NCBI GenBank assembly: GCA_035720425.1
Contig: DASTOB010000061.1
Span: forward strand, 29,870-93,869
Direction: 5' to 3'
Origin: Candidatus Limnocylindrales bacterium
GTDB lineage: Bacteria > Chloroflexota > Limnocylindria > Limnocylindrales > CSP1-4
DNA: 64,000 nucleotides
The translations under genes and the position numbers were made by a program. Each line of letters opens with the position of its first letter. Position 1 is the stretch's first letter. Below the pieces are notes generated by a model, which was given only the letters and a program-made list of their open reading frames with translations, was not told the DNA's origin and ran no database searches. Below, piece by piece: positions 37,582 to 45,045 of this stretch.

Positions 37582-37639
37582 GTCCGTGGCCGGACGACTC
37601 GAGGCCGGGGCCGCCCGCGGCTCGGGCCGGCGCTCGTGG

Positions 37640-37710
37640 GAGGCTGATCTTCGGGGCTGATCTCCGGGTCCCTCGTCGGGGCCCTCGTCGGGGCTGATCT
37701 CCGGGGCCTC
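37640..37710. repeat. Short interleaved direct repeats (GCTGATCT x3, CCCTCGTCGGGG x2)
   Basis: I read these directly from the sequence in the convergent pimA / giant-GT intergenic region. Confidence 0.6.
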
Positions 37711-37723
37711 TCGCGGGCCGTTC

Positions 37724-38043
37724 GCTCGTGGGACGAGCAGCCGGGACATGGTGGGGCCCGCGCAGGTCTCGTTCGCTCGTGGGACGAGCAACGGCGACCG
37801 ATTTGGGCGCCAGGGTGCACCGGCTGCTCGTGGGGCGAGCAACGCCGACGTGGTGGGGCTCTTCCGCGTCGCGTTCGCTCGTGGGACGAGCGGCGGCGAC
37901 CGATCGAGGCGCCAGGGTGCACCGGCTGCTCGTGGGGCGAGCAACGCCGACCTGGTGGGGCTCTTCCGCGTCGCGTTCGCTCGTGGGACGAGCGGCGGCG
38001 ACCGAGCTGAGCACCACAGGTACCGGCTGCCCGTGGGACGAGC
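37724..38043. repeat. Array of 7 GC-rich hairpin cores (GCTCGTGGGRCGAGC) phased every 51 bp, organised as a 102-bp tandem repeat of two alternating 51-bp sub-units
   Basis: The cores start at 37724, 37775, 37826, 37877, 37928, 37979 and 38029 (the last is degenerate). The 102-bp units starting at 37771, 37873 and 37975 are near-identical. Each core is a 5-6 bp stem with a 5-nt loop. Confidence 0.85.
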
Positions 38044-38056
38044 AGCCCTGCGACCC

Positions 38057-41000
38057 TCAGCCGGGCTGAGCGACTGCCCCGCTTCCGTCGTCGCTCGCCT
38101 CGCGTTCGGCCAGCGCGATTCGCCAGACCCAGGCGCTGTACGCGACGACCGCACAGGCAACGGTGAGCGCCGCCAGCAGGATCGCCGGACCCGGGGCGAT
38201 GAGCGACGGCCCGGCCACGTTGCGATCGACCGTGCTGACCGGGAACTGGAACGGGTACACGTAGGTCGGCAGGATTCCCTGGTACATGTTCACGATCGGA
38301 GCCGGGAGCGGCAGGGCGGCGATGTTCGGATAGAAGAACACGGCCGTGCCGACGATCGCGAGCAACGCACCGCCGACGAACCGCCGCGCATCGCGGGCGG
38401 TTGCCACGAAGCCCGCGATGAGGACGAGCGGCAGGGCGACGAGCAACGCGACCGGCTCGACGGCGACATTGCTGAGTGCGAGGAGCGTGACTTCCCCGGC
38501 CGTCGCGGTCACGACCGCGAGCGCGATCGCCGCCACGAGGGCAACCACGAGCGCGGGGCCGAACACCCCGACGACGCCCGCCGACCTGGCGAGCCCCGCG
38601 AGCCCCCCGAGCGCCCCGACCCCGACGCGCCCCTCGACGCTCCGGACTCCCCCGACTCCCTCGCCTCCCCCGACTCCCTCGCCTCCCGCGAACCGACCCG
38701 ATCGGATCGAATCCCCCGCCGAGCCGCTCCCGCTCGGTCCCCGGTGGTCCTCCGGCTCGCCCCCGTCCGTCGGCCGCTGCAGGCGAAGCAGCTGGCGCAC
38801 GAGGATGAGCACCGCGAGCGTGACGACGATCGCGAGGGCAGCCGACCGATAGGTGAGCACGAACTCCGGGATGAGCGTGGGGCACGCTCGTGAGCCCGGA
38901 AGCACCTGCTCGACCCCGACGAACCCGCACAGCGGGCGGTGGAACAGCCACATCGCGGCCGGCGCGACGACCGCGGCGGCGGCCGCGAGTCGCGCGAACA
39001 GCCACGTCCGCCGCGACGCCCCGTGCCACAGCTCGGCGAGGAAGTAGGCCAGGGCAAGGAGCACGAACGGCAGGCTCGTGTAGTAGTGGTACTGGAACGC
39101 CGCCCGATCGATCCGCGCCCACGGGATCCACTGGCAGGCAAACCCGATCGCGATGAGTGCGAGGGCCAGACTGCGCCGGCGGTACGCCTGCCACGCGGCG
39201 AAGGCCATCGCCGGCACGCCGAGCCACCAGATGACGAGGTTGCCCGCGTCGTAGATCGACGCCGCGGTCCCGCCGGCGAACGACTCCTGGTAGAACCAGA
39301 CCGGCTTGAGGTCGAACGGCCAGGCCCACCACGGCGACGAGGCAGCGTGCGCGGACGACAGCGTGTTGTGATAGCGGTACATGTCGCCGGTCAGGGTGAG
39401 CAGCGTCTGCCCGGTATGTCCGGCCGGCCAGCCGTCGACGATCCGATGGTTCTCGACCCACGCCCACGGCACGTACGAGGCGACATAGACGGCGACCGGG
39501 ATCGCGATCAGGCAGGCCAGCATCCACGCGACCGGGAGGCCGAGGGCCCAGCCCGGCCGGAGCCACCCGGCTGCCGGTGGATCCGCCGGCGCGAGCAGCG
39601 CCGCCGGATCGTCCGGCCCCGGCGGCGGTGCGAGGGGGCCGAACCCCCACCGCCCGGCCAGCCAGAAGGCGCCCGCGACGGCGATCGACCCGAGGGCGAG
39701 GGCGAACGAGGCCTCGAGCGGCGTGACGCTCACGCTGCCGAGCGCGATTGGCGCGTCGAGCACGCCGGCGGCGAGCGCGGCAAGGGCGATCAGCCCACCG
39801 GCCGCGGCCGGCGCCCCGATCGCGAAGCGGAGCTCGTCGTCCGACCAGGCGATCGGCCGGAGCACGGTCACCACGACCGCGACGAGGGTCAGGGCGATCA
39901 TGATGAGCGGGAAGAGGAGGTTGCCGCCGGTCTGTCCCTCCGGGACGCTGATCGCGAGATAGCCGAGCACGGTCGTCACGACGATCATCCCGGCCACGAG
40001 CACGAGCCGGCCCAGCGCGCTCCGGGCCAGGATGAGGATGCCGAGCGCGCCGATGGCGTAGGCCGCCACCCACTTCGAGGCGAGCGCCAACCCGAGCAGG
40101 AGGCCGATCGCCGGCATGACGACCCAGAACGCGCCGCGCCACCGCCACGCACCGGTCCACAACCCCGCGAACAGCGCGTACGCGGCAACGATGAACAACC
40201 CGACGTACGCGTCGTTCATCCCGATCCGCGCCTGGACGAAGAGCATCCCGTCGGCGACGAGCAGGATGGCGAGGAAGACCGCGACCGCGCGACGCTGGAA
40301 GAACAGGCGCGCGAGCAGGAACAGCAGCACCGCCATGATCGTCCCGGCGATCACGCCGGGCAGGCGCCATGCGAAGGCGTGGCTGCCGACACCGATCGAC
40401 GCGGTCGTCCCGTCGGGCTCGAACACGAGCAGCTCCTGGCGGTCGTCCGCCGGGTACAGCCCGTTGGAGTCCATCACCCACGCCGCCGGCTCGGCCGGCA
40501 AGCGCGCATCCGCGTAGACCGCGTTGGCGTGTGGCTCGATGACGTAGACCGTCCAGCCGGCCGGGTCGTCCGGCGCGGCGCCGAGGATGTGGACCTGCTG
40601 ACTCGCCTCGTCGTGGGCCACCCACCCGCCTCGGGCCGGAAGCGGTGCCGACCGATCGAGGGTCGGCGTGTCGTCTGCCTTGTCGCCCCCGATCGTGACG
40701 ATCCCGTAGCGCGGCCCGTCCGCGCCGTTCATCGTGAAGTACAGCTTCGGATCGTCGACGCCCGTGACGAGAGCGACTCCGCCGGCGCCGCCATCCGCGG
40801 GGAGCGTGGACGACACCGCCCCAGCGGCGGGCACGACGAACGTCAGGCCACTCGCCGCCGCGACCGCGACGCGCGGCAGCTCGACCACCTCGACGCCCGC
40901 GAGCCGGCCGCTCGTGATCGCCCCGTCGACGCGTTCGCGCCGATCGACCGGCACGGGGGCCAGGATGACGCGCTCCGCGTCGGATGCGAGGAGCTCGCGA

Positions 41001-43537
41001 TAGTGCTCCCGGTCGCCGCCCACGAGCCCGGCCAGGGCGGCCGCGACGGCCACGGGGTCGGCGACGTCGGCCGGGTTGGCGACGGCGGCCGGCGCGCGTC
41101 CCGCCTCGGCCAGCTGGGCGATCCCATCGAGGACGAGCGTGCCGGTCACCGTACCGCTCGCCGCGTCGACCATCGCAGCCCGCCCGTCGGCAAGGACGGC
41201 TACCAGCGCGGAGCCGTCGTCGGTCACGTGGATGCGCTCGATCGCGCCGTCGAGCCGCGTCAGCTCCGGCGCCGCGAGGCTGAAGCCGTCGGTCCCGATC
41301 GCGCGCGCCTCGTCGAGCGACGTGAGCTCGATCGTCGCGAGGACGCCATCGGCCGTCCCCACGATGAGCCGGTGGCCCACCCGGTCGACCGCGACGGCCG
41401 ACGCGCCGACCACCGGCGTCGCGGCCACGAGCGCGCGGGTGGCGAGGTCGTACGAGCGCACCTCGGTGCCGGTCGCGACATGCAGCCGGTCGCCGAGCCG
41501 ACCGGACCGACGGGCCGGATCCTCGTAGCGGGGCTCGATCACGGCGTCGGCCACCGGCACGCCGAGCTCGCTCGTTGCCCGCACCCGGTCGTCGCCCCAG
41601 GCGACGATCCCGCCGGCCATCGCGTACTTGGCGAGGTGCGGGTGCGTCCACTCGTAGATGTCGTGCGAGATCCCGTAGCGCCAGTGCTGGAGGAATTCGG
41701 TCGCCGTCCGCGCGTGATACACCTCGTCGAAGTGCATCTGGTACGGCTCCGCGAGCCGCCACAGCCGCGTGCCGAACACGGCGGCGATGAGCACGACGAC
41801 GATCCACAGGTCGAGCCGGTCGAGGCGCCCGCCACGCTCGCGGGCGAGGAGGGCGGTGCGATCCGGCCGGATGGGCCGCTCGACGAGGCGAGTCCGGAAC
41901 CACTCCCAGGCGCCGACCTCGGCGACCGGCGGGCGCTCGCGCCAGGTCGGTGGCCGCGGCGGTTCGGCCGGCTCGGCGATCGGTGATCCGGGCGACGATG
42001 GCGGAGGGATGACCGACGCCGCCGAGCGCGGCGCCGGAGCGAGGTGGAGCGGGCGGGCGGACCCCTCCGGGACGTCCTCCGGCGATTCGACCGGCGTTCC
42101 CGCAGCGGCTTCGGCCGACGCGCCGATCTCGCCACGCACCCCTGCGATCGCCCCGCGACGGAGCTGACCGGCGACCCATCCGAACGCCGCGGCGTGGACG
42201 AGCGCAACGACGGCGACCCCGGCGGCGGACCGGATGAGCGGCCCGATCCCGAGCCAGTCGTCGATCTGCGGGTTGTCCGGATAGAGCGTGGTGAGGACGA
42301 CGTACATGTTCGCGAACGTCGCGACCGAGACGATGACGTACGCGATACGCCAGCGCAGCGACCCGCCGGCCAGGATCGCGGCGAGGGCGAAGAACGGGAA
42401 CAGGTACCGCTCATGGACCCGGGTCGGCACGATGAAGAAGACGAAGGCGAGGACGATGAGCCCGACAAGCATGGTGATCCGATCCGGCCGCCGCGCAACG
42501 ACGAGCGTGACCGCGCCGATCGCGGCGAGGAGGAGCGCCGTGCCGACCAGCAGCGCGGGGACGGGCCCGAACATGAACGCGACGCCCTCGCCCGGACCGC
42601 TGCCGGCCACGTCGCGGACCCATTGGCCGCTCGCCGCCAGCCCCACGCCGTCGAGCGACAGGAGCGCCCACGGGTTGTACGCGTTGACGGTCAGGTATGG
42701 ATAACCGGCGGCGGCCGTGCCGACCTGCTCGAGGAGGCCGACGATCGATAGGCCGTACGGGGCCGACAGGGCGACAGCGGTGAGCAGGCCGACGAGCCCG
42801 GTCGTCACGACGCGCAGCGGGCCCCGGGTCCGCCACTCCCAGTCCGTCGTCGTTCGCCGTCGCTCCGGGGCATCGTCGCCGCCGAACCCGCCCTCCGGCC
42901 AGAATGCCCGCCGAATCGTTACCGCGGCGACGAGCGGAACGAGGATGCCGAGCTGCGGCTTGATGATCGCGGCGACGACGGTCAGGAACGCGGACCGCTC
43001 CGGCCGGTCGCGCCACAGTTCGCGGAGCGCGAGGAGCAGGAAGACGACGCCGACGGCATCGACCTGGCCCCACACGACGCTGTCGAACCAGGTGATCGGG
43101 TTGACGATGACGATGACGGCCGACACGAGGGCGGCCCGCCGGCCGATCCCGAGCTCGAGGGCCATCGACCGGACGAGCCAGGCGAGGGCCAGATCGGCGA
43201 GGATGGGCGGGACCTTGATGAGGTCGCCGATCCCACCGAACGCGGAGCCGACGAGGCCGACCACCCAGAGCACGTACAGGTAGCCGGGCGTGTAGTCGTG
43301 GAAGAACGGGCGCTCGTAGAACCCGAACGGGCCCTCCGCGGCGAGGTTCGCCGCCCAGAAGCGGAAGGCGTTGAGGTCCGCCTCGAAGCCGGATCCCGGG
43401 AGCAGGTATGCAAGAATGAGCCGGAAGGCGAGCCCGAGCGCGAGCACGATGAGGATCGCGCTGGCCGCTTCTCCCGTCCTGGTCCGCGTCGGCGCTTCCA
43501 CGCCCCGATCGGGCTCACCCGTAGCGGGGCGACTCAC
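38057..43537 (-). CDS. Giant (1826 aa) polytopic membrane protein: an N-terminal GT-C-fold glycosyltransferase fused to a PMT/GT39-type protein O-mannosyltransferase-like domain that carries a roughly 400-aa soluble insertion
   Basis: - N-terminal domain: FEADLNAFRFWA...DYTPGYLYVLW...HERYLFPF, with many TM segments.
- A Pro-rich linker follows.
- PMT-like part: MHFDEVYHARTATEF...WTHPHLAKY, then the insertion, then HAFAWRLPGVIAGTIMAVLLFLLARL and more than 10 further TM segments.
- I chose the GTG at 43537, which is preceded by AGGAGG. Confidence 0.8.
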   Translation of the reverse strand: MSRPATGEPDRGVEAPTRTRTGEAASAILIVLALGLAFRLILAYLLPGSGFEADLNAFRFWAANLAAEGPFGFYERPFFHDYTPGYLYVLWVVGLVGSAFGGIGDLIKVPPILADLALAWLVRSMALELGIGRRAALVSAVIVIVNPITWFDSVVWGQVDAVGVVFLLLALRELWRDRPERSAFLTVVAAIIKPQLGILVPLVAAVTIRRAFWPEGGFGGDDAPERRRTTTDWEWRTRGPLRVVTTGLVGLLTAVALSAPYGLSIVGLLEQVGTAAAGYPYLTVNAYNPWALLSLDGVGLAASGQWVRDVAGSGPGEGVAFMFGPVPALLVGTALLLAAIGAVTLVVARRPDRITMLVGLIVLAFVFFIVPTRVHERYLFPFFALAAILAGGSLRWRIAYVIVSVATFANMYVVLTTLYPDNPQIDDWLGIGPLIRSAAGVAVVALVHAAAFGWVAGQLRRGAIAGVRGEIGASAEAAAGTPVESPEDVPEGSARPLHLAPAPRSAASVIPPPSSPGSPIAEPAEPPRPPTWRERPPVAEVGAWEWFRTRLVERPIRPDRTALLARERGGRLDRLDLWIVVVLIAAVFGTRLWRLAEPYQMHFDEVYHARTATEFLQHWRYGISHDIYEWTHPHLAKYAMAGGIVAWGDDRVRATSELGVPVADAVIEPRYEDPARRSGRLGDRLHVATGTEVRSYDLATRALVAATPVVGASAVAVDRVGHRLIVGTADGVLATIELTSLDEARAIGTDGFSLAAPELTRLDGAIERIHVTDDGSALVAVLADGRAAMVDAASGTVTGTLVLDGIAQLAEAGRAPAAVANPADVADPVAVAAALAGLVGGDREHYRELLASDAERVILAPVPVDRRERVDGAITSGRLAGVEVVELPRVAVAAASGLTFVVPAAGAVSSTLPADGGAGGVALVTGVDDPKLYFTMNGADGPRYGIVTIGGDKADDTPTLDRSAPLPARGGWVAHDEASQQVHILGAAPDDPAGWTVYVIEPHANAVYADARLPAEPAAWVMDSNGLYPADDRQELLVFEPDGTTASIGVGSHAFAWRLPGVIAGTIMAVLLFLLARLFFQRRAVAVFLAILLVADGMLFVQARIGMNDAYVGLFIVAAYALFAGLWTGAWRWRGAFWVVMPAIGLLLGLALASKWVAAYAIGALGILILARSALGRLVLVAGMIVVTTVLGYLAISVPEGQTGGNLLFPLIMIALTLVAVVVTVLRPIAWSDDELRFAIGAPAAAGGLIALAALAAGVLDAPIALGSVSVTPLEASFALALGSIAVAGAFWLAGRWGFGPLAPPPGPDDPAALLAPADPPAAGWLRPGWALGLPVAWMLACLIAIPVAVYVASYVPWAWVENHRIVDGWPAGHTGQTLLTLTGDMYRYHNTLSSAHAASSPWWAWPFDLKPVWFYQESFAGGTAASIYDAGNLVIWWLGVPAMAFAAWQAYRRRSLALALIAIGFACQWIPWARIDRAAFQYHYYTSLPFVLLALAYFLAELWHGASRRTWLFARLAAAAAVVAPAAMWLFHRPLCGFVGVEQVLPGSRACPTLIPEFVLTYRSAALAIVVTLAVLILVRQLLRLQRPTDGGEPEDHRGPSGSGSAGDSIRSGRFAGGEGVGGGEGVGGVRSVEGRVGVGALGGLAGLARSAGVVGVFGPALVVALVAAIALAVVTATAGEVTLLALSNVAVEPVALLVALPLVLIAGFVATARDARRFVGGALLAIVGTAVFFYPNIAALPLPAPIVNMYQGILPTYVYPFQFPVSTVDRNVAGPSLIAPGPAILLAALTVACAVVAYSAWVWRIALAEREASDDGSGAVAQPG

Positions 43538-43569
43538 GAGGGAAATCGGCCTCCTGCACGAGCGTTGAG

Positions 43570-45045
43570 GTGGAGCGCAGCGTAGCACAGGGTCGCGCGC
43601 CGGAGGCCCGGCCCGATCGACCGACGCCCCGGCCGGCCCGTTCCTGGCGTGCGCTGCGGATCGCGCTCGCTCTGATGGCCGTGGCCGCCATCGCCTACAC
43701 GGCCTGGAACCCGCTTCGCTTCTACAACCACTTCGTGTGGCAGGCGGAGGCCTTCCTCGACGGACGCGCCGAGATCGCGTACCCGGTCGCCGCATCGGAC
43801 GATTCCCCGGGCAACTGGTTCTTCCAGGACGTGCTCCCGGTCGAGCGGCCGCGCGGCGGCGAGCCCGGCACCGGTCTTATCCCGTTCCCGCCGCTGCCGG
43901 CGATCCTGCTCGTGCCGTTCGTCGCCGTGTTCGGTCTCGCGACCGACCAGCAACTCATCGCGTCGGTCCTCGGCGCGATCGACGTGGGCCTCGTCTGGTG
44001 GCTCCTGGGGCGGCTCCGGGTGTCCGAGTCGATCCGGCTGGCGACGACGATCTTCTTCGGCTTCGGGACGGTTTTCTGGTACACGGCGCAGCTCGGCACG
44101 ACGTGGTGGTTCGCGCACGTCGTGGCGCTCGCCCCGCTGCTGCTCGCCGTGGGGCTGGCGATCGACGGCGACCGCGACAGCGCACGGAGCGAGGACGACC
44201 TGCGAGATCCGGAGGGCACGGATGCGGCCGGCCGCTCGATCCGCGCGCTCGCTCGACGGCCATGGCGCCTCCTCGACGCACGCCAGGTCGTCGTCGGCTT
44301 CCTGTTCGGCCTGGCGGCCACGGCGCGCCTGACCGTGCTCTTCGGCGCCCCGTTCTTCGTCCTCGTCGGCAGCGGCGGCAGCTGGCCGCGGCGGGCCGTG
44401 TCGGCCGGTCTCGGCGCAGCCATCCCGGTCGGCGCCCTGCTCGTCTACAACTACGTGTCGACCGGCCACCTGTTCCACCCCGCCTACGAGTTCCTCTACC
44501 GAGCGGAGGCGTTCGGCTACCCCACCCTCGGCTACCACCTCGACTGGGCGATCGAGGACCCGCGCTACATCCCGCAGAATCTCGCGATCATGCTGTTCAG
44601 CCTGCCGGTGCTCTTCCCCGACCAGGTCCCCTCGGCGCTCGGGGACTACGGCGCGCTGTGCGTCGATCCCGGCGCCGTGCGCGGGATCTTCGACGAGGCC
44701 TGCCCGATCGCGCTGCCGCGCGACGTCGGGATGAGCCTGCTCCTGACCAGCCCGGCCTATCTCCTCGCCCTGCCGGCCCTCCGCCTCCACGGCCGGTCGC
44801 GCCTGGTGACCGGGGCGGTGATCGCCGTCCTGCTCATCGCCGTCGTGAATCTCATGCACTTCAGCCAGGGCTGGGTCCAGTTCGGCTACCGCTTCAGCAA
44901 CGACTTCGTCGTCTTCGCGCTGCCACTCGTCGCGCTCGGCCTGGCGCTGCGCGGTGGGGTCGGACGGCTGGGCTGGGCCCTCGTCGCGGTGTCGGTCGCG
45001 GTCAACCTGTGGGGCGTCGCGTGGGGGAATCTGCTCGGATGGTGA
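43570..45045 (+). CDS. Polytopic membrane glycosyltransferase, GT-C-like (ArnT/PMT_2-like)
   Basis: 491 aa with at least 10 TM segments and an early periplasmic-loop acidic motif region (FQDVLPVE...PFPPLPAILLVP). It is divergent from the giant GT gene and is the first gene of a three-gene operon. The family call is by eye. Confidence 0.6.
   Translation: MERSVAQGRAPEARPDRPTPRPARSWRALRIALALMAVAAIAYTAWNPLRFYNHFVWQAEAFLDGRAEIAYPVAASDDSPGNWFFQDVLPVERPRGGEPGTGLIPFPPLPAILLVPFVAVFGLATDQQLIASVLGAIDVGLVWWLLGRLRVSESIRLATTIFFGFGTVFWYTAQLGTTWWFAHVVALAPLLLAVGLAIDGDRDSARSEDDLRDPEGTDAAGRSIRALARRPWRLLDARQVVVGFLFGLAATARLTVLFGAPFFVLVGSGGSWPRRAVSAGLGAAIPVGALLVYNYVSTGHLFHPAYEFLYRAEAFGYPTLGYHLDWAIEDPRYIPQNLAIMLFSLPVLFPDQVPSALGDYGALCVDPGAVRGIFDEACPIALPRDVGMSLLLTSPAYLLALPALRLHGRSRLVTGAVIAVLLIAVVNLMHFSQGWVQFGYRFSNDFVVFALPLVALGLALRGGVGRLGWALVAVSVAVNLWGVAWGNLLGW

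Follow-up and report, generated by a model that had tools for sequence, protein, structure and literature searches.

The window (the whole 64,000-nucleotide stretch of DNA that was analysed) contains a gene for an 1826-residue membrane enzyme with three joined parts, which is real and conserved: an N-terminal GT87-like module with a GT-C fold, a GT39-type module resembling protein O-mannosyltransferases (PMTs), and a beta-propeller inserted into the first extracytoplasmic loop (loop 1) of the latter. On balance, the protein appears to be a single-chain counterpart of the mycobacterial Pmt/GT87-like/propeller complex that O-glycosylates exported proteins and whose active site is capped by the propeller. 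The covalent fusion implies that the three fold classes may act together. The organism belongs to Limnocylindria, an abundant uncultured class of soil and freshwater in the phylum Chloroflexota.

The gene occupies 38057..43537 of the reverse strand (1826 codons plus the stop). Its open frame (38057..43795, same strand) extends beyond the chosen start, a GTG at 43537 that was preferred because the N-termini of homologs align there and that is preceded 12 nt upstream by AGGAGG. GC content by codon position is 0.74/0.55/0.90 over the entire frame 38057..43537, and coding is therefore unbroken. The first-pass annotation had described the fusion as one open reading frame, and each motif is found where it had been placed: FEADLNAFRFWA begins at residue 51, DYTPGYLYVLW at residue 81, HERYLFPF at residue 375, MHFDEVYHARTA at residue 601, WTHPHLAKY at residue 630 and HAFAWRLPG at residue 1053 (nt 40381), with the DE codons (D604/E605) at nt 41723-41728.

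An artifact in which frameshift or misassembly fused two or three neighboring genes of this metagenome-assembled genome, a possibility raised at the outset, is extremely improbable. Some long-read assemblies do call relatives as two or three abutting genes, and database entries of relatives are often labeled partial, but of 80 related loci in independent assemblies, 78 have every part in a single reading frame of 1700 aa or more, all parts align at occupancy near 1 among the relatives, and the GC signal is continuous. The Pro/Arg-rich interdomain linker (residues 471-572, 41822..42127, reverse strand), which had been noticed as a Pro-rich stretch preceding the PMT-like module, is the least conserved part of the N-terminal two thirds of the protein (residues 481-520: identity 0.14, occupancy 0.65), yet it is present in all relatives; the positive-inside pattern and the N-in orientation of the first transmembrane (TM) helix of the PMT module suggest that it is cytoplasmic. 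A split example breaks near residue 615, within PMT loop 1 and away from any domain border, which points to a sequencing error in that assembly. Apparent free-standing N-module genes of 500-850 aa on long contigs were discounted as evidence that the modules occur as separate genes, since the one case inspected is this split fusion gene, called as three abutting pieces of which the first two part within that loop.

Searches recovered over 1000 full-length relatives (55-91% identity, approximately 100% coverage), and 420 species-representative genomes encode one. In a phylum-wide sample, for which the query of the phylum- and class-level genome search was a 493-aa piece of the protein, all sampled genomes of Limnocylindria have the loop-1 propeller, and none from another class does. 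The architecture, first regarded as unusual, is instead the rule across Limnocylindria. The tandem arrangement of GT-C modules also has a precedent: translational fusions of GT39 to GT87 had already been noted in Paenibacillus (10.64898/2026.07.15.738315). Literature searches turned up no publication dealing with tandem GT-C fusions, phosphatidylinositol mannosides (PIMs) in Chloroflexota or the Limnocylindria fusion protein. Relatives are annotated merely as 'phospholipid carrier-dependent glycosyltransferase', and frameshifts in long-read assemblies have left many of them as separate partial entries, labeled 'GT87 family' or 'PMT'; the present analysis corrects this database annotation practice.

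The N-terminal module (residues 1-470, 42128..43537, reverse strand) is GT87/ALG6/PimE-like, with about 12 TM helices. Single-sequence and profile searches of the PDB with this module found nothing, and only the fold search was informative: the best Foldseek matches of its AF2 model (pLDDT 92.4, pTM 0.91) are ALG6 (6snh), GPI mannosyltransferase I (9wno) and PimE (9dm7), which share its GT-C fold at target-normalised TM-scores of 0.64-0.69 (PimE: E 3.2e-5, TMt 0.64; the other two slightly better) despite sequence identities of 12-19%. The N-terminal part is accordingly a complete GT-C module, as had been proposed; unlike these three enzymes, it is joined to a PMT module. Profile assignment places it in glycosyltransferase family GT87 (PF09594) by a marginal score, 26.7 bits against a cut-off of 25 when the module was scanned alone and 28.6 bits in a genome scan; the model went unreported in the Pfam scan of the full 1826-aa protein, and Alg6_Alg8 gave an E-value of 0.027 for the module.

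Alignment of the relatives shows that D54 (43376-43378), K193 (42959-42961) and H375 (42413-42415, all reverse strand), the last within an invariant R373-V-H375-E-R-Y378, do not vary, and D81-Y82-x-P84-G85-Y86 and Q158/D160 are further invariants. By helix pattern and numbering, D54, K193 and H375 appear to parallel the catalytic aspartate D58 at the JM1 tip of PimE and its phosphate-binding K195 and H322 (PMC12041525): D54 likewise starts the first juxtamembrane helix, and the Lys and His are numerically close to their PimE counterparts. With this Asp/Lys/His set at the positions expected of a GT-C active site, the module may be catalytically active. A purely scaffolding, non-catalytic role like that proposed for Rv0051 of mycobacteria, in which sugar would be transferred by the PMT module only and the conserved residues would bind either the acceptor polypeptide or the lipid carrier, seems rather unlikely. 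Such a role would agree with the marginal GT87 score, with the mycobacterial GT87-like partner, which reportedly lacks catalytic residues and has been likened to Pmt2 (10.64898/2026.07.15.738315), and with an invariant Phe (F58) that matches by spacing the essential Y62 of PimE (PMC12041525). However, D54, Q158/D160, K193 and H375-E376 are invariant over 79 sequences with a mean identity of about 52%, and they are also kept in a 34%-identical paralog on another contig, a degree of conservation that exceeds the expected needs of a scaffold.

The second module was described from the outset as PMT-like, a description upheld by its invariant DE motif and by two Pfam domains that exceed their cut-offs in the full protein: PMT (PF02366, 31.4 bits against 22.7, residues 1053-1171) and PMT_4TMC (PF16192, 50.8 bits against 32.4, residues 1379-1537). 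TM1 and the start of loop 1 (residues 573-645, 41603..41821, reverse strand) hold the DE motif (D604/E605), aligned by HMMER with that of yeast Pmt4 (9e61), and the sequence T-H632-P-H-L-A-K637-Y; residues 601-640 are 92% identical among 78 relatives. The core, which begins with TM2 and ends with the final PMT helix (residues 1053-1560, 38858..40381, reverse strand), contains W1057-R1058, R-I-G-M-N-D1109, K1155, a loop with S-P-W-W-A-W-P...K-P-V-W-F, and an invariant cysteine pair (C1537/C1552), and its HMMER profile matches to Pmt4 and Pmt1 in the PDB align R1058, D1109 and K1155 with yeast residues. Across 79 sequences, no variation occurs at D604/E605, H632, K637, R1058, D1109 or K1155. Of these, D604, H632, D1109 and K1155 are the counterparts of the essential D113, H159, D233 and K302 of Streptomyces coelicolor Pmt, and R1058 is that of yeast Pmt1 R138, listed as essential (PMC8698208). 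The fusion has in common with GT39 PMTs (yeast Pmt1, Pmt2 and Pmt4, and those of S. coelicolor and Mycobacterium tuberculosis) the PMT and PMT_4TMC domains, the loop-1 DE motif, and HPxLxK, WR, (L/N)D and K motifs at equivalent places, but it carries a second GT-C module, and its score on the NCBIfam Pmt equivalog model (NF058602) is a small fraction of the cut-off (43.7 bits against 800), which counts against ortholog-level identity with a characterised Pmt. It is the sole GT39-like gene found in the 87%-complete genome.

The soluble insertion in this module, estimated beforehand at roughly 400 aa and suspected to be propeller-like, measures about 410 aa (residues ~646-1052, 40382..41602, reverse strand) and is predicted with high confidence to form a seven-bladed WD40-like beta-propeller. 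In the AF2 model of residues 565-1560 (pLDDT 85.1, pTM 0.83) it has 28 strands outside an inserted subdomain, i.e. seven four-stranded blades, and Foldseek aligned it with Gbeta, Tup1 and UTP15 over approximately 415 columns (TMt 0.64-0.75); nearly all of the best 50 matches are seven-bladed WD40-type propellers, two BamB proteins excepted. Weak matches to propeller families of Pfam occur in 21 of 61 members, and a profile search with the propeller found no stand-alone relatives, only fragments of the same family and one weak YncE-like match. Two long strands in blade 4 are separated by a small alpha/beta subdomain (residues 821-881, 40895..41077, reverse strand; by DSSP in the model, helices 264-275, 279-286 and 300-311 and strand 293-297), and profile positions 233-339 match residues 58-165 of a class B penicillin-binding protein (4ovd, E 5.5e-7) and SpoVD (7rcz).

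The propeller is anchored 15 residues past K637 and 9 residues ahead of R1058, so that its insertion site lies between the HPxLxK motif (H632...K637) and R1058. These flanks correspond to H159, K164 and R182 of S. coelicolor Pmt, all in periplasmic loop 1 (PMC8698208), which agrees with the earlier proposal that the insertion falls within or beside the extracytoplasmic catalytic loop. Conservation of the propeller peaks in the first blade and the final two blades, and includes the motif Y-V-I-E1001-P-H1003-x-N-A-V-Y-A-D. Chain connectivity, the pTM of the model and this conservation suggest that the propeller sits above the PMT active site, where, by analogy with the mycobacterial propeller subunit, it may serve as an acceptor-recognition domain. 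Eukaryotic PMTs also have a soluble domain beside the active site, but theirs, the MIR domain, is a beta-trefoil between TM7 and TM8 rather than a propeller in loop 1.

The polypeptide ends in a C-terminal extension of five TM helices (residues 1561-1826, 38060..38857, reverse strand), delimited by hydropathy and conservation and consisting of one TM helix, a variable Gly-rich linker and four more TM helices. Its outer loop is conserved (Y-P-N...P-L-P...Q-G..P-T-Y.Y.F-Q-F), and no credible Pfam match to the extension was found in 45 members. This conserved extension is absent from the first-pass annotation.

The mycobacterial holo-complex comprises Pmt (Rv1002c/ML0192c, GT39), the GT87-like Rv0051/ML2687c, the periplasmic beta-propeller Rv3212/ML0810c, reported to be eight-bladed, and the DivIVA-like Rv1209/ML1065 (10.64898/2026.07.15.738315). 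Pmt pulls down the GT87-like protein and the propeller, and the latter is modeled directly over the Pmt active site and its DE motif; the evidence for the complex so far consists of a single pull-down, phenotype correlations and AlphaFold3 models (10.64898/2026.07.15.738315). Compared by description, both it and the fusion combine a GT39 enzyme with a GT87-like GT-C partner and have an extracytoplasmic propeller by the DE site. The fusion, in contrast, is one polypeptide with the propeller inside PMT loop 1 instead of a separate subunit; its propeller has seven blades, not eight; its GT87-like module retains Asp, Lys and His as candidate catalytic residues, whereas ML2687c is reported to be without catalytic residues (10.64898/2026.07.15.738315); it has the additional C-terminal extension; and no DivIVA-like subunit was identified for it. 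Given the difference in blade number and the lack of stand-alone relatives in the profile search, the propeller may be an analog rather than a homolog of Rv3212.

If the fusion is indeed a single-chain counterpart of this complex, its PMT-like GT39-type module would use a polyprenyl-phosphate sugar, probably the mannose form, produced by the GT2 enzyme that is encoded 3 kb away, and would glycosylate Ser/Thr residues of exported proteins on the outside of the cytoplasmic membrane. The presumed base in the transfer would be D604 in the DE motif. The propeller over the PMT active site would select or gate acceptor proteins, a task assigned to the MIR domain of eukaryotic PMTs and, in mycobacteria, to the separate Rv3212 propeller. 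Pmt2 has been described as recruiting the acceptor polypeptide and Pmt1 as catalysing (10.64898/2026.07.15.738315); the N-terminal module would be a covalently joined counterpart of Rv0051, paired with the PMT module as Pmt2 is with Pmt1, and perhaps active too, for example in extending the first sugar.

The fusion gene, which is near dnaA-dnaN-recF, always sits between a phosphatidylinositol (PI)/PIM-type lipid operon and a neighboring conserved operon that encodes a DUF2723 GT-C protein and the GT2 enzyme, which resembles polyprenyl-phosphate-sugar synthases. The lipid operon, on the 3' side and convergent with the fusion gene, encodes ArsR, a CDP-alcohol phosphatidyltransferase, inositol-1-phosphate synthase, two LpxL-type acyltransferases, a PHP phosphatase and a GT4 enzyme. 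No relationship between the divergent neighbor (43570-45045) and the N-terminal module was detected by hhalign (probability 0.5%), and neither Pfam, the PDB nor NCBIfam yielded a credible assignment for this neighbor.

The presence of the PI/PIM-type operon is no less compatible with a role in lipoglycan synthesis than with protein O-glycosylation. Both GT-C modules would then elongate and branch a PI-anchored glycolipid made by this operon, building a lipomannan-like polymer with polyprenyl-phosphate sugar while the propeller grips the growing glycan in the manner of the carbohydrate-binding modules of EmbC and AftD. The operon is conserved in essentially all 80 loci, two of the three best structural matches of the N-terminal module (PimE and GPI mannosyltransferase I) mannosylate PI-anchored glycolipids, the module keeps its candidate catalytic residues, and the Pmt equivalog score is far under its cut-off. 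A lipoglycan synthase is nevertheless the less probable assignment, to be entertained as a minority view: the second module has both PMT-specific Pfam domains, beyond the generic PMT_2/ArnT signature; three or four further stand-alone GT87 genes of the genome, which outscore the N-terminal module on GT87, could perform PIM elongation; and the trio of Pmt, GT87-like protein and propeller has its precedent in protein glycosylation. Moreover, the convergent orientation precludes co-transcription of the fusion gene and the PI operon, and synteny near dnaA-dnaN-recF may mirror a conserved genome backbone.

As a counterpart of the Pmt/GT87-like/propeller complex, the fusion backs from another phylum an assembly only recently proposed in mycobacteria, gene fusion being independent, sequence-level evidence of joint function. 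The single chain offers a structural target that needs no reconstitution of stoichiometry, and a GT87-like module that is apparently still catalytically competent bears on the original role of that partner. In a more speculative and distinctly unlikely version, both GT-C modules would be active in sequence, the propeller-guided PMT module adding the first mannose to Ser/Thr and the GT87/PimE-like module extending it. If so, initiation and elongation of O-glycosylation would be united in one polypeptide, the Pmt/GT87/propeller partnership would be older than the split between Chloroflexota and Actinomycetota, and the mycobacterial GT87-like subunit would be the degenerate remnant of a once-active elongating enzyme. 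The fusion gene is the likeliest candidate for glycosylation of surface proteins or lipoglycans in Limnocylindria.

The giant gene (38057-43537, minus strand) lies in DNA of about 73% G+C, within an open minus-strand frame running from 43795 to 38057. Alignment of 78 relatives places its N-terminus at a GTG (43537) with AGGAGG 12 nt upstream, giving a protein of 1826 aa. Every motif quoted in the first-pass annotation was found where it had been placed: FEADLNAFRFWA (residue 51), DYTPGYLYVLW (residue 81), HERYLFPF (residue 375), MHFDEVYHARTA (residue 601, containing D604/E605 at nt 41723-41728), WTHPHLAKY (residue 630) and HAFAWRLPG (residue 1053). That annotation had described a fusion of two GT-C modules, and the possibility that two genes were joined by error can be set aside: the gene is one coding frame because its G+C content by codon position (0.74/0.55/0.90) is maintained across the whole frame, and at 78 of the top 80 loci, drawn from many independent assemblies, the longest frame is a single open reading frame of at least 1700 aa.

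Over 1000 relatives were retrieved from 5.8 billion proteins. The top 120 have lengths of 1696-1875 aa and 54-91% identity, most spanning 85-100% of the query; where a source is named, it is nearly always a Candidatus Limnocylindrales or Chloroflexota MAG. Scanning one genome per species identified a relative encoded in 420 genomes. In the joint alignment, all parts (N module, loop 1, insertion, PMT core, C-terminal extension) have occupancy near 1, and variability is confined to residues 481-520 and 1601-1660, as would be expected of linkers. The orthologue on one 3.7-Mb contig of a long-read assembly (L084:7001-12470, plus strand) is called as three abutting genes (615, 1047 and 156 aa), the first break falling within PMT loop 1 rather than at any domain border, which probably reflects indel errors in that assembly. 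Proteins on long contigs that look like free-standing N modules are, as in this inspected example, the product of such splitting, and they give no evidence that the modules occur as separate genes. Long-read split calls probably also account for many database entries named "partial GT87 family" and "PMT".

The N module (residues 1-470) is of the GT-C glycosyltransferase type, as had been proposed: searched alone, it marginally passes the Pfam GT87 cut-off (26.7 bits; cut-off 25) and weakly matches Alg6_Alg8 across the HERY region. Its AF2 model is very confident (pLDDT 92.4, pTM 0.91), and the PDB structures closest to it in fold are those of yeast ALG6 (6snh), GPI mannosyltransferase I (9wno) and mycobacterial PimE (9dm7), followed by non-catalytic PIG-U and ALG3. 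Invariant residues include D54, D81-Y-x-P-G-Y86, Q158, D160, K193-P-Q and P371-T-R-V-H375-E-R-Y. In PimE, D58 at the JM1 tip is the catalytic base, with K195 and H322 binding the donor phosphate (PMC12041525); judged by helix pattern, D54, K193 and H375 would occupy the corresponding places. The position of the essential Y62 of PimE is taken by an invariant Phe. Model helices and the positive-inside pattern suggest 12 transmembrane (TM) helices, with both ends cytoplasmic and the invariant residues all outside. A nearly invariant Cys pair (308/317) lies in a loop predicted to be extracytoplasmic.

A poorly conserved, presumably cytoplasmic linker rich in Pro and Arg (residues 471-572) leads to the second module, whose description as PMT-like with a DE motif is upheld by Pfam matches above cut-off to PMT (residues 1053-1171) and PMT_4TMC (residues 1379-1537). 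The family profile matches yeast Pmt4, yeast Pmt1 and C. thermophilum Pmt4 in the PDB, aligning the DE motif, R1058, D1109 and K1155 to their yeast counterparts; these residues and H632...K637 of T-H-P-H-L-A-K-Y are invariant in the family. The Streptomyces coelicolor Pmt equivalents D113, H159, D233 and K302 are essential, and periplasmic loop 1 of that enzyme holds D113, E114, H159, K164 and R182 (PMC8698208). Judged by sequence, the module is a GT39-type enzyme that is not an orthologue-level match to Pmt (43.7 bits, compared with an NCBIfam equivalog cut-off of 800).

K637 and R1058 are separated by 420 residues, versus 17 in S. coelicolor; thus, the insertion (residues 646-1052) lies within loop 1, with an active-site motif on either side. 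Nothing between TM1 (approximately 574-592) and TM2 (approximately 1057-1080) spans the membrane, and because Arg-rich segments lie outside this pair, one before TM1 and one after TM2, homology and the positive-inside rule together predict that the insertion is extracytoplasmic, in agreement with its earlier placement in or next to the catalytic loop. It had also been called propeller-like, and in the AF2 model of residues 565-1560 (pLDDT 85.1, pTM 0.83) it forms 28 strands arranged as seven four-stranded blades, plus an alpha/beta subdomain; nearly all of its top PDB matches by Foldseek are WD40-type propellers with seven blades, among them Gbeta, Tup1 and UTP15 (TMt of at most 0.75, across about 415 columns). 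Weak propeller signals also recur at the sequence level, in 21 of 61 members. The best-conserved segments, in the first and last two blades (including YVIEPHxNAVYAD), are those closest along the chain to the points where the insertion is anchored in loop 1. The subdomain (residues 821-881; 40895-41077, minus strand) is modelled between two long strands of blade 4. Taken with its flanking strands, it resembles the non-catalytic N-terminal part of class B penicillin-binding proteins (4ovd residues 58-165, E 5.5e-7; SpoVD 7rcz, E 0.045); the Pfam PBP_dimer domain was found in none of the 61 members.

The C-terminal extension (residues 1561-1826; 38060-38857, minus strand) comprises a single TM helix and, beyond a variable linker rich in Gly, four more TM helices whose outer loop, YPN..P.P...QG..P..Y.FQF, is invariant. 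It matched no Pfam family in 45 members and is absent from some shorter relatives (about 1215-1270 aa). Just ahead of it is an invariant Cys pair (C1537/C1552) in a loop predicted to be extracytoplasmic, in keeping with an extracytoplasmic end of the PMT core; this pair and 308/317 may both form disulfides.

Among 101 genomes spread evenly across the phylum, the loop-1-plus-propeller segment was detected in all ten Limnocylindria, in open frames of about 1560-1940 aa save one of 902 aa, and not in the remaining 90 or so, one of which encodes an ordinary 550-aa PMT matching loop 1 only. A small-genome class member (G058) has two copies (contigs C4 and C7, frames of 1565 and 1598 aa). Divergent representatives (1215-1830 aa, N module 31-40% identical) keep the same order of parts, some with a shorter insertion and lacking the C-terminal extension, and a propeller-only profile found no stand-alone relatives. 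The genome to which the window belongs encodes a 1278-aa paralogue of the N module (L083:3771-7607, plus strand, contig C211), with only weak PIG-U and Alg6_Alg8 matches in Pfam, whose first 450 aa are 34% identical and retain the D, DYPP, K and PTRVHERYL motifs; the rest, about 800 aa, is membrane-rich, matches no assigned family and differs from the C-terminal part of the giant protein. Four further, stand-alone GT87-type matches (L085-L087 and L089; contigs C20, C210, C172 and C51; frames of about 290-350 aa), three of them above the Pfam cut-off and higher-scoring than the N module, are candidates for true PimE-like enzymes. No second GT39-like gene was found in this genome.

The arrangement immediately around the giant gene recurs in essentially all 80 loci. 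Further out in the window, dnaN and recF lie at a distance of about 8-10 kb. On the 3' side, after a 475-bp gap (37582-38056), is a convergent set encoding GT4, a PHP phosphatase, two LpxL-type acyltransferases, inositol-1-phosphate synthase, a CDP-alcohol phosphatidyltransferase and ArsR, together the genes for the early steps of PI/PIM lipid synthesis. This invariant neighbourhood and the likeness of the N-module fold to PimE and GPI mannosyltransferase I favour the main rival reading, a role in elongating a PI-anchored lipoglycan, which we consider possible but rather unlikely. The divergent set on the 5' side encodes a 491-aa membrane protein with no credible match in Pfam, PDB or NCBIfam searches, a DUF2723/TMEM260-like GT-C protein, and a GT2. 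In NCBIfam this GT2 is closest to synthases of polyprenyl-phosphate sugars, for example ArnC, PgfS, PpgS and dolichyl-P-hexose transferase, with every match below its cut-off. The start of the 491-aa gene (annotated GTG, 43570) is only 32 bp from that of the giant gene; either the promoters overlap or one start is wrong.

No literature describing this architecture in Limnocylindria was found. In Mycobacterium smegmatis, Pmt-FLAG co-purifies with homologues of Rv0051 (GT87-family, reported to lack catalytic residues), Rv3212 (a periplasmic propeller of eight blades, placed by modelling right over the active site of Pmt and likened to the MIR domain) and Rv1209 (a small DivIVA-like protein), the phenotypes of partner loss correlate with those of pmt loss, and GT39-GT87 fusions occur in Paenibacillus (10.64898/2026.07.15.738315). 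The same three kinds of large part are present here in one chain, and this likeness is the best guide to function available. The Limnocylindria propeller, in contrast to the separate Rv3212, is spliced into loop 1, has seven blades rather than eight and has no detectable sequence relatives outside the family; unlike what is reported for Rv0051, the GT87-like module retains candidate catalytic residues; and there is a five-TM extension but no DivIVA-like part was seen. The beta-trefoil MIR domain of eukaryotic PMTs, between TM7 and TM8 (PMC12705809), differs from this propeller in both place and fold. On balance, we lean slightly towards a single-chain Pmt, GT87-like and propeller machine that would use a polyprenyl-phosphate sugar to O-glycosylate exported proteins, its active site gated by the propeller. 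The giant protein offers independent fusion evidence for the mycobacterial complex and a convenient structural target in a single chain, and its gene can mark envelope glycosylation in a class that is abundant but uncultured.
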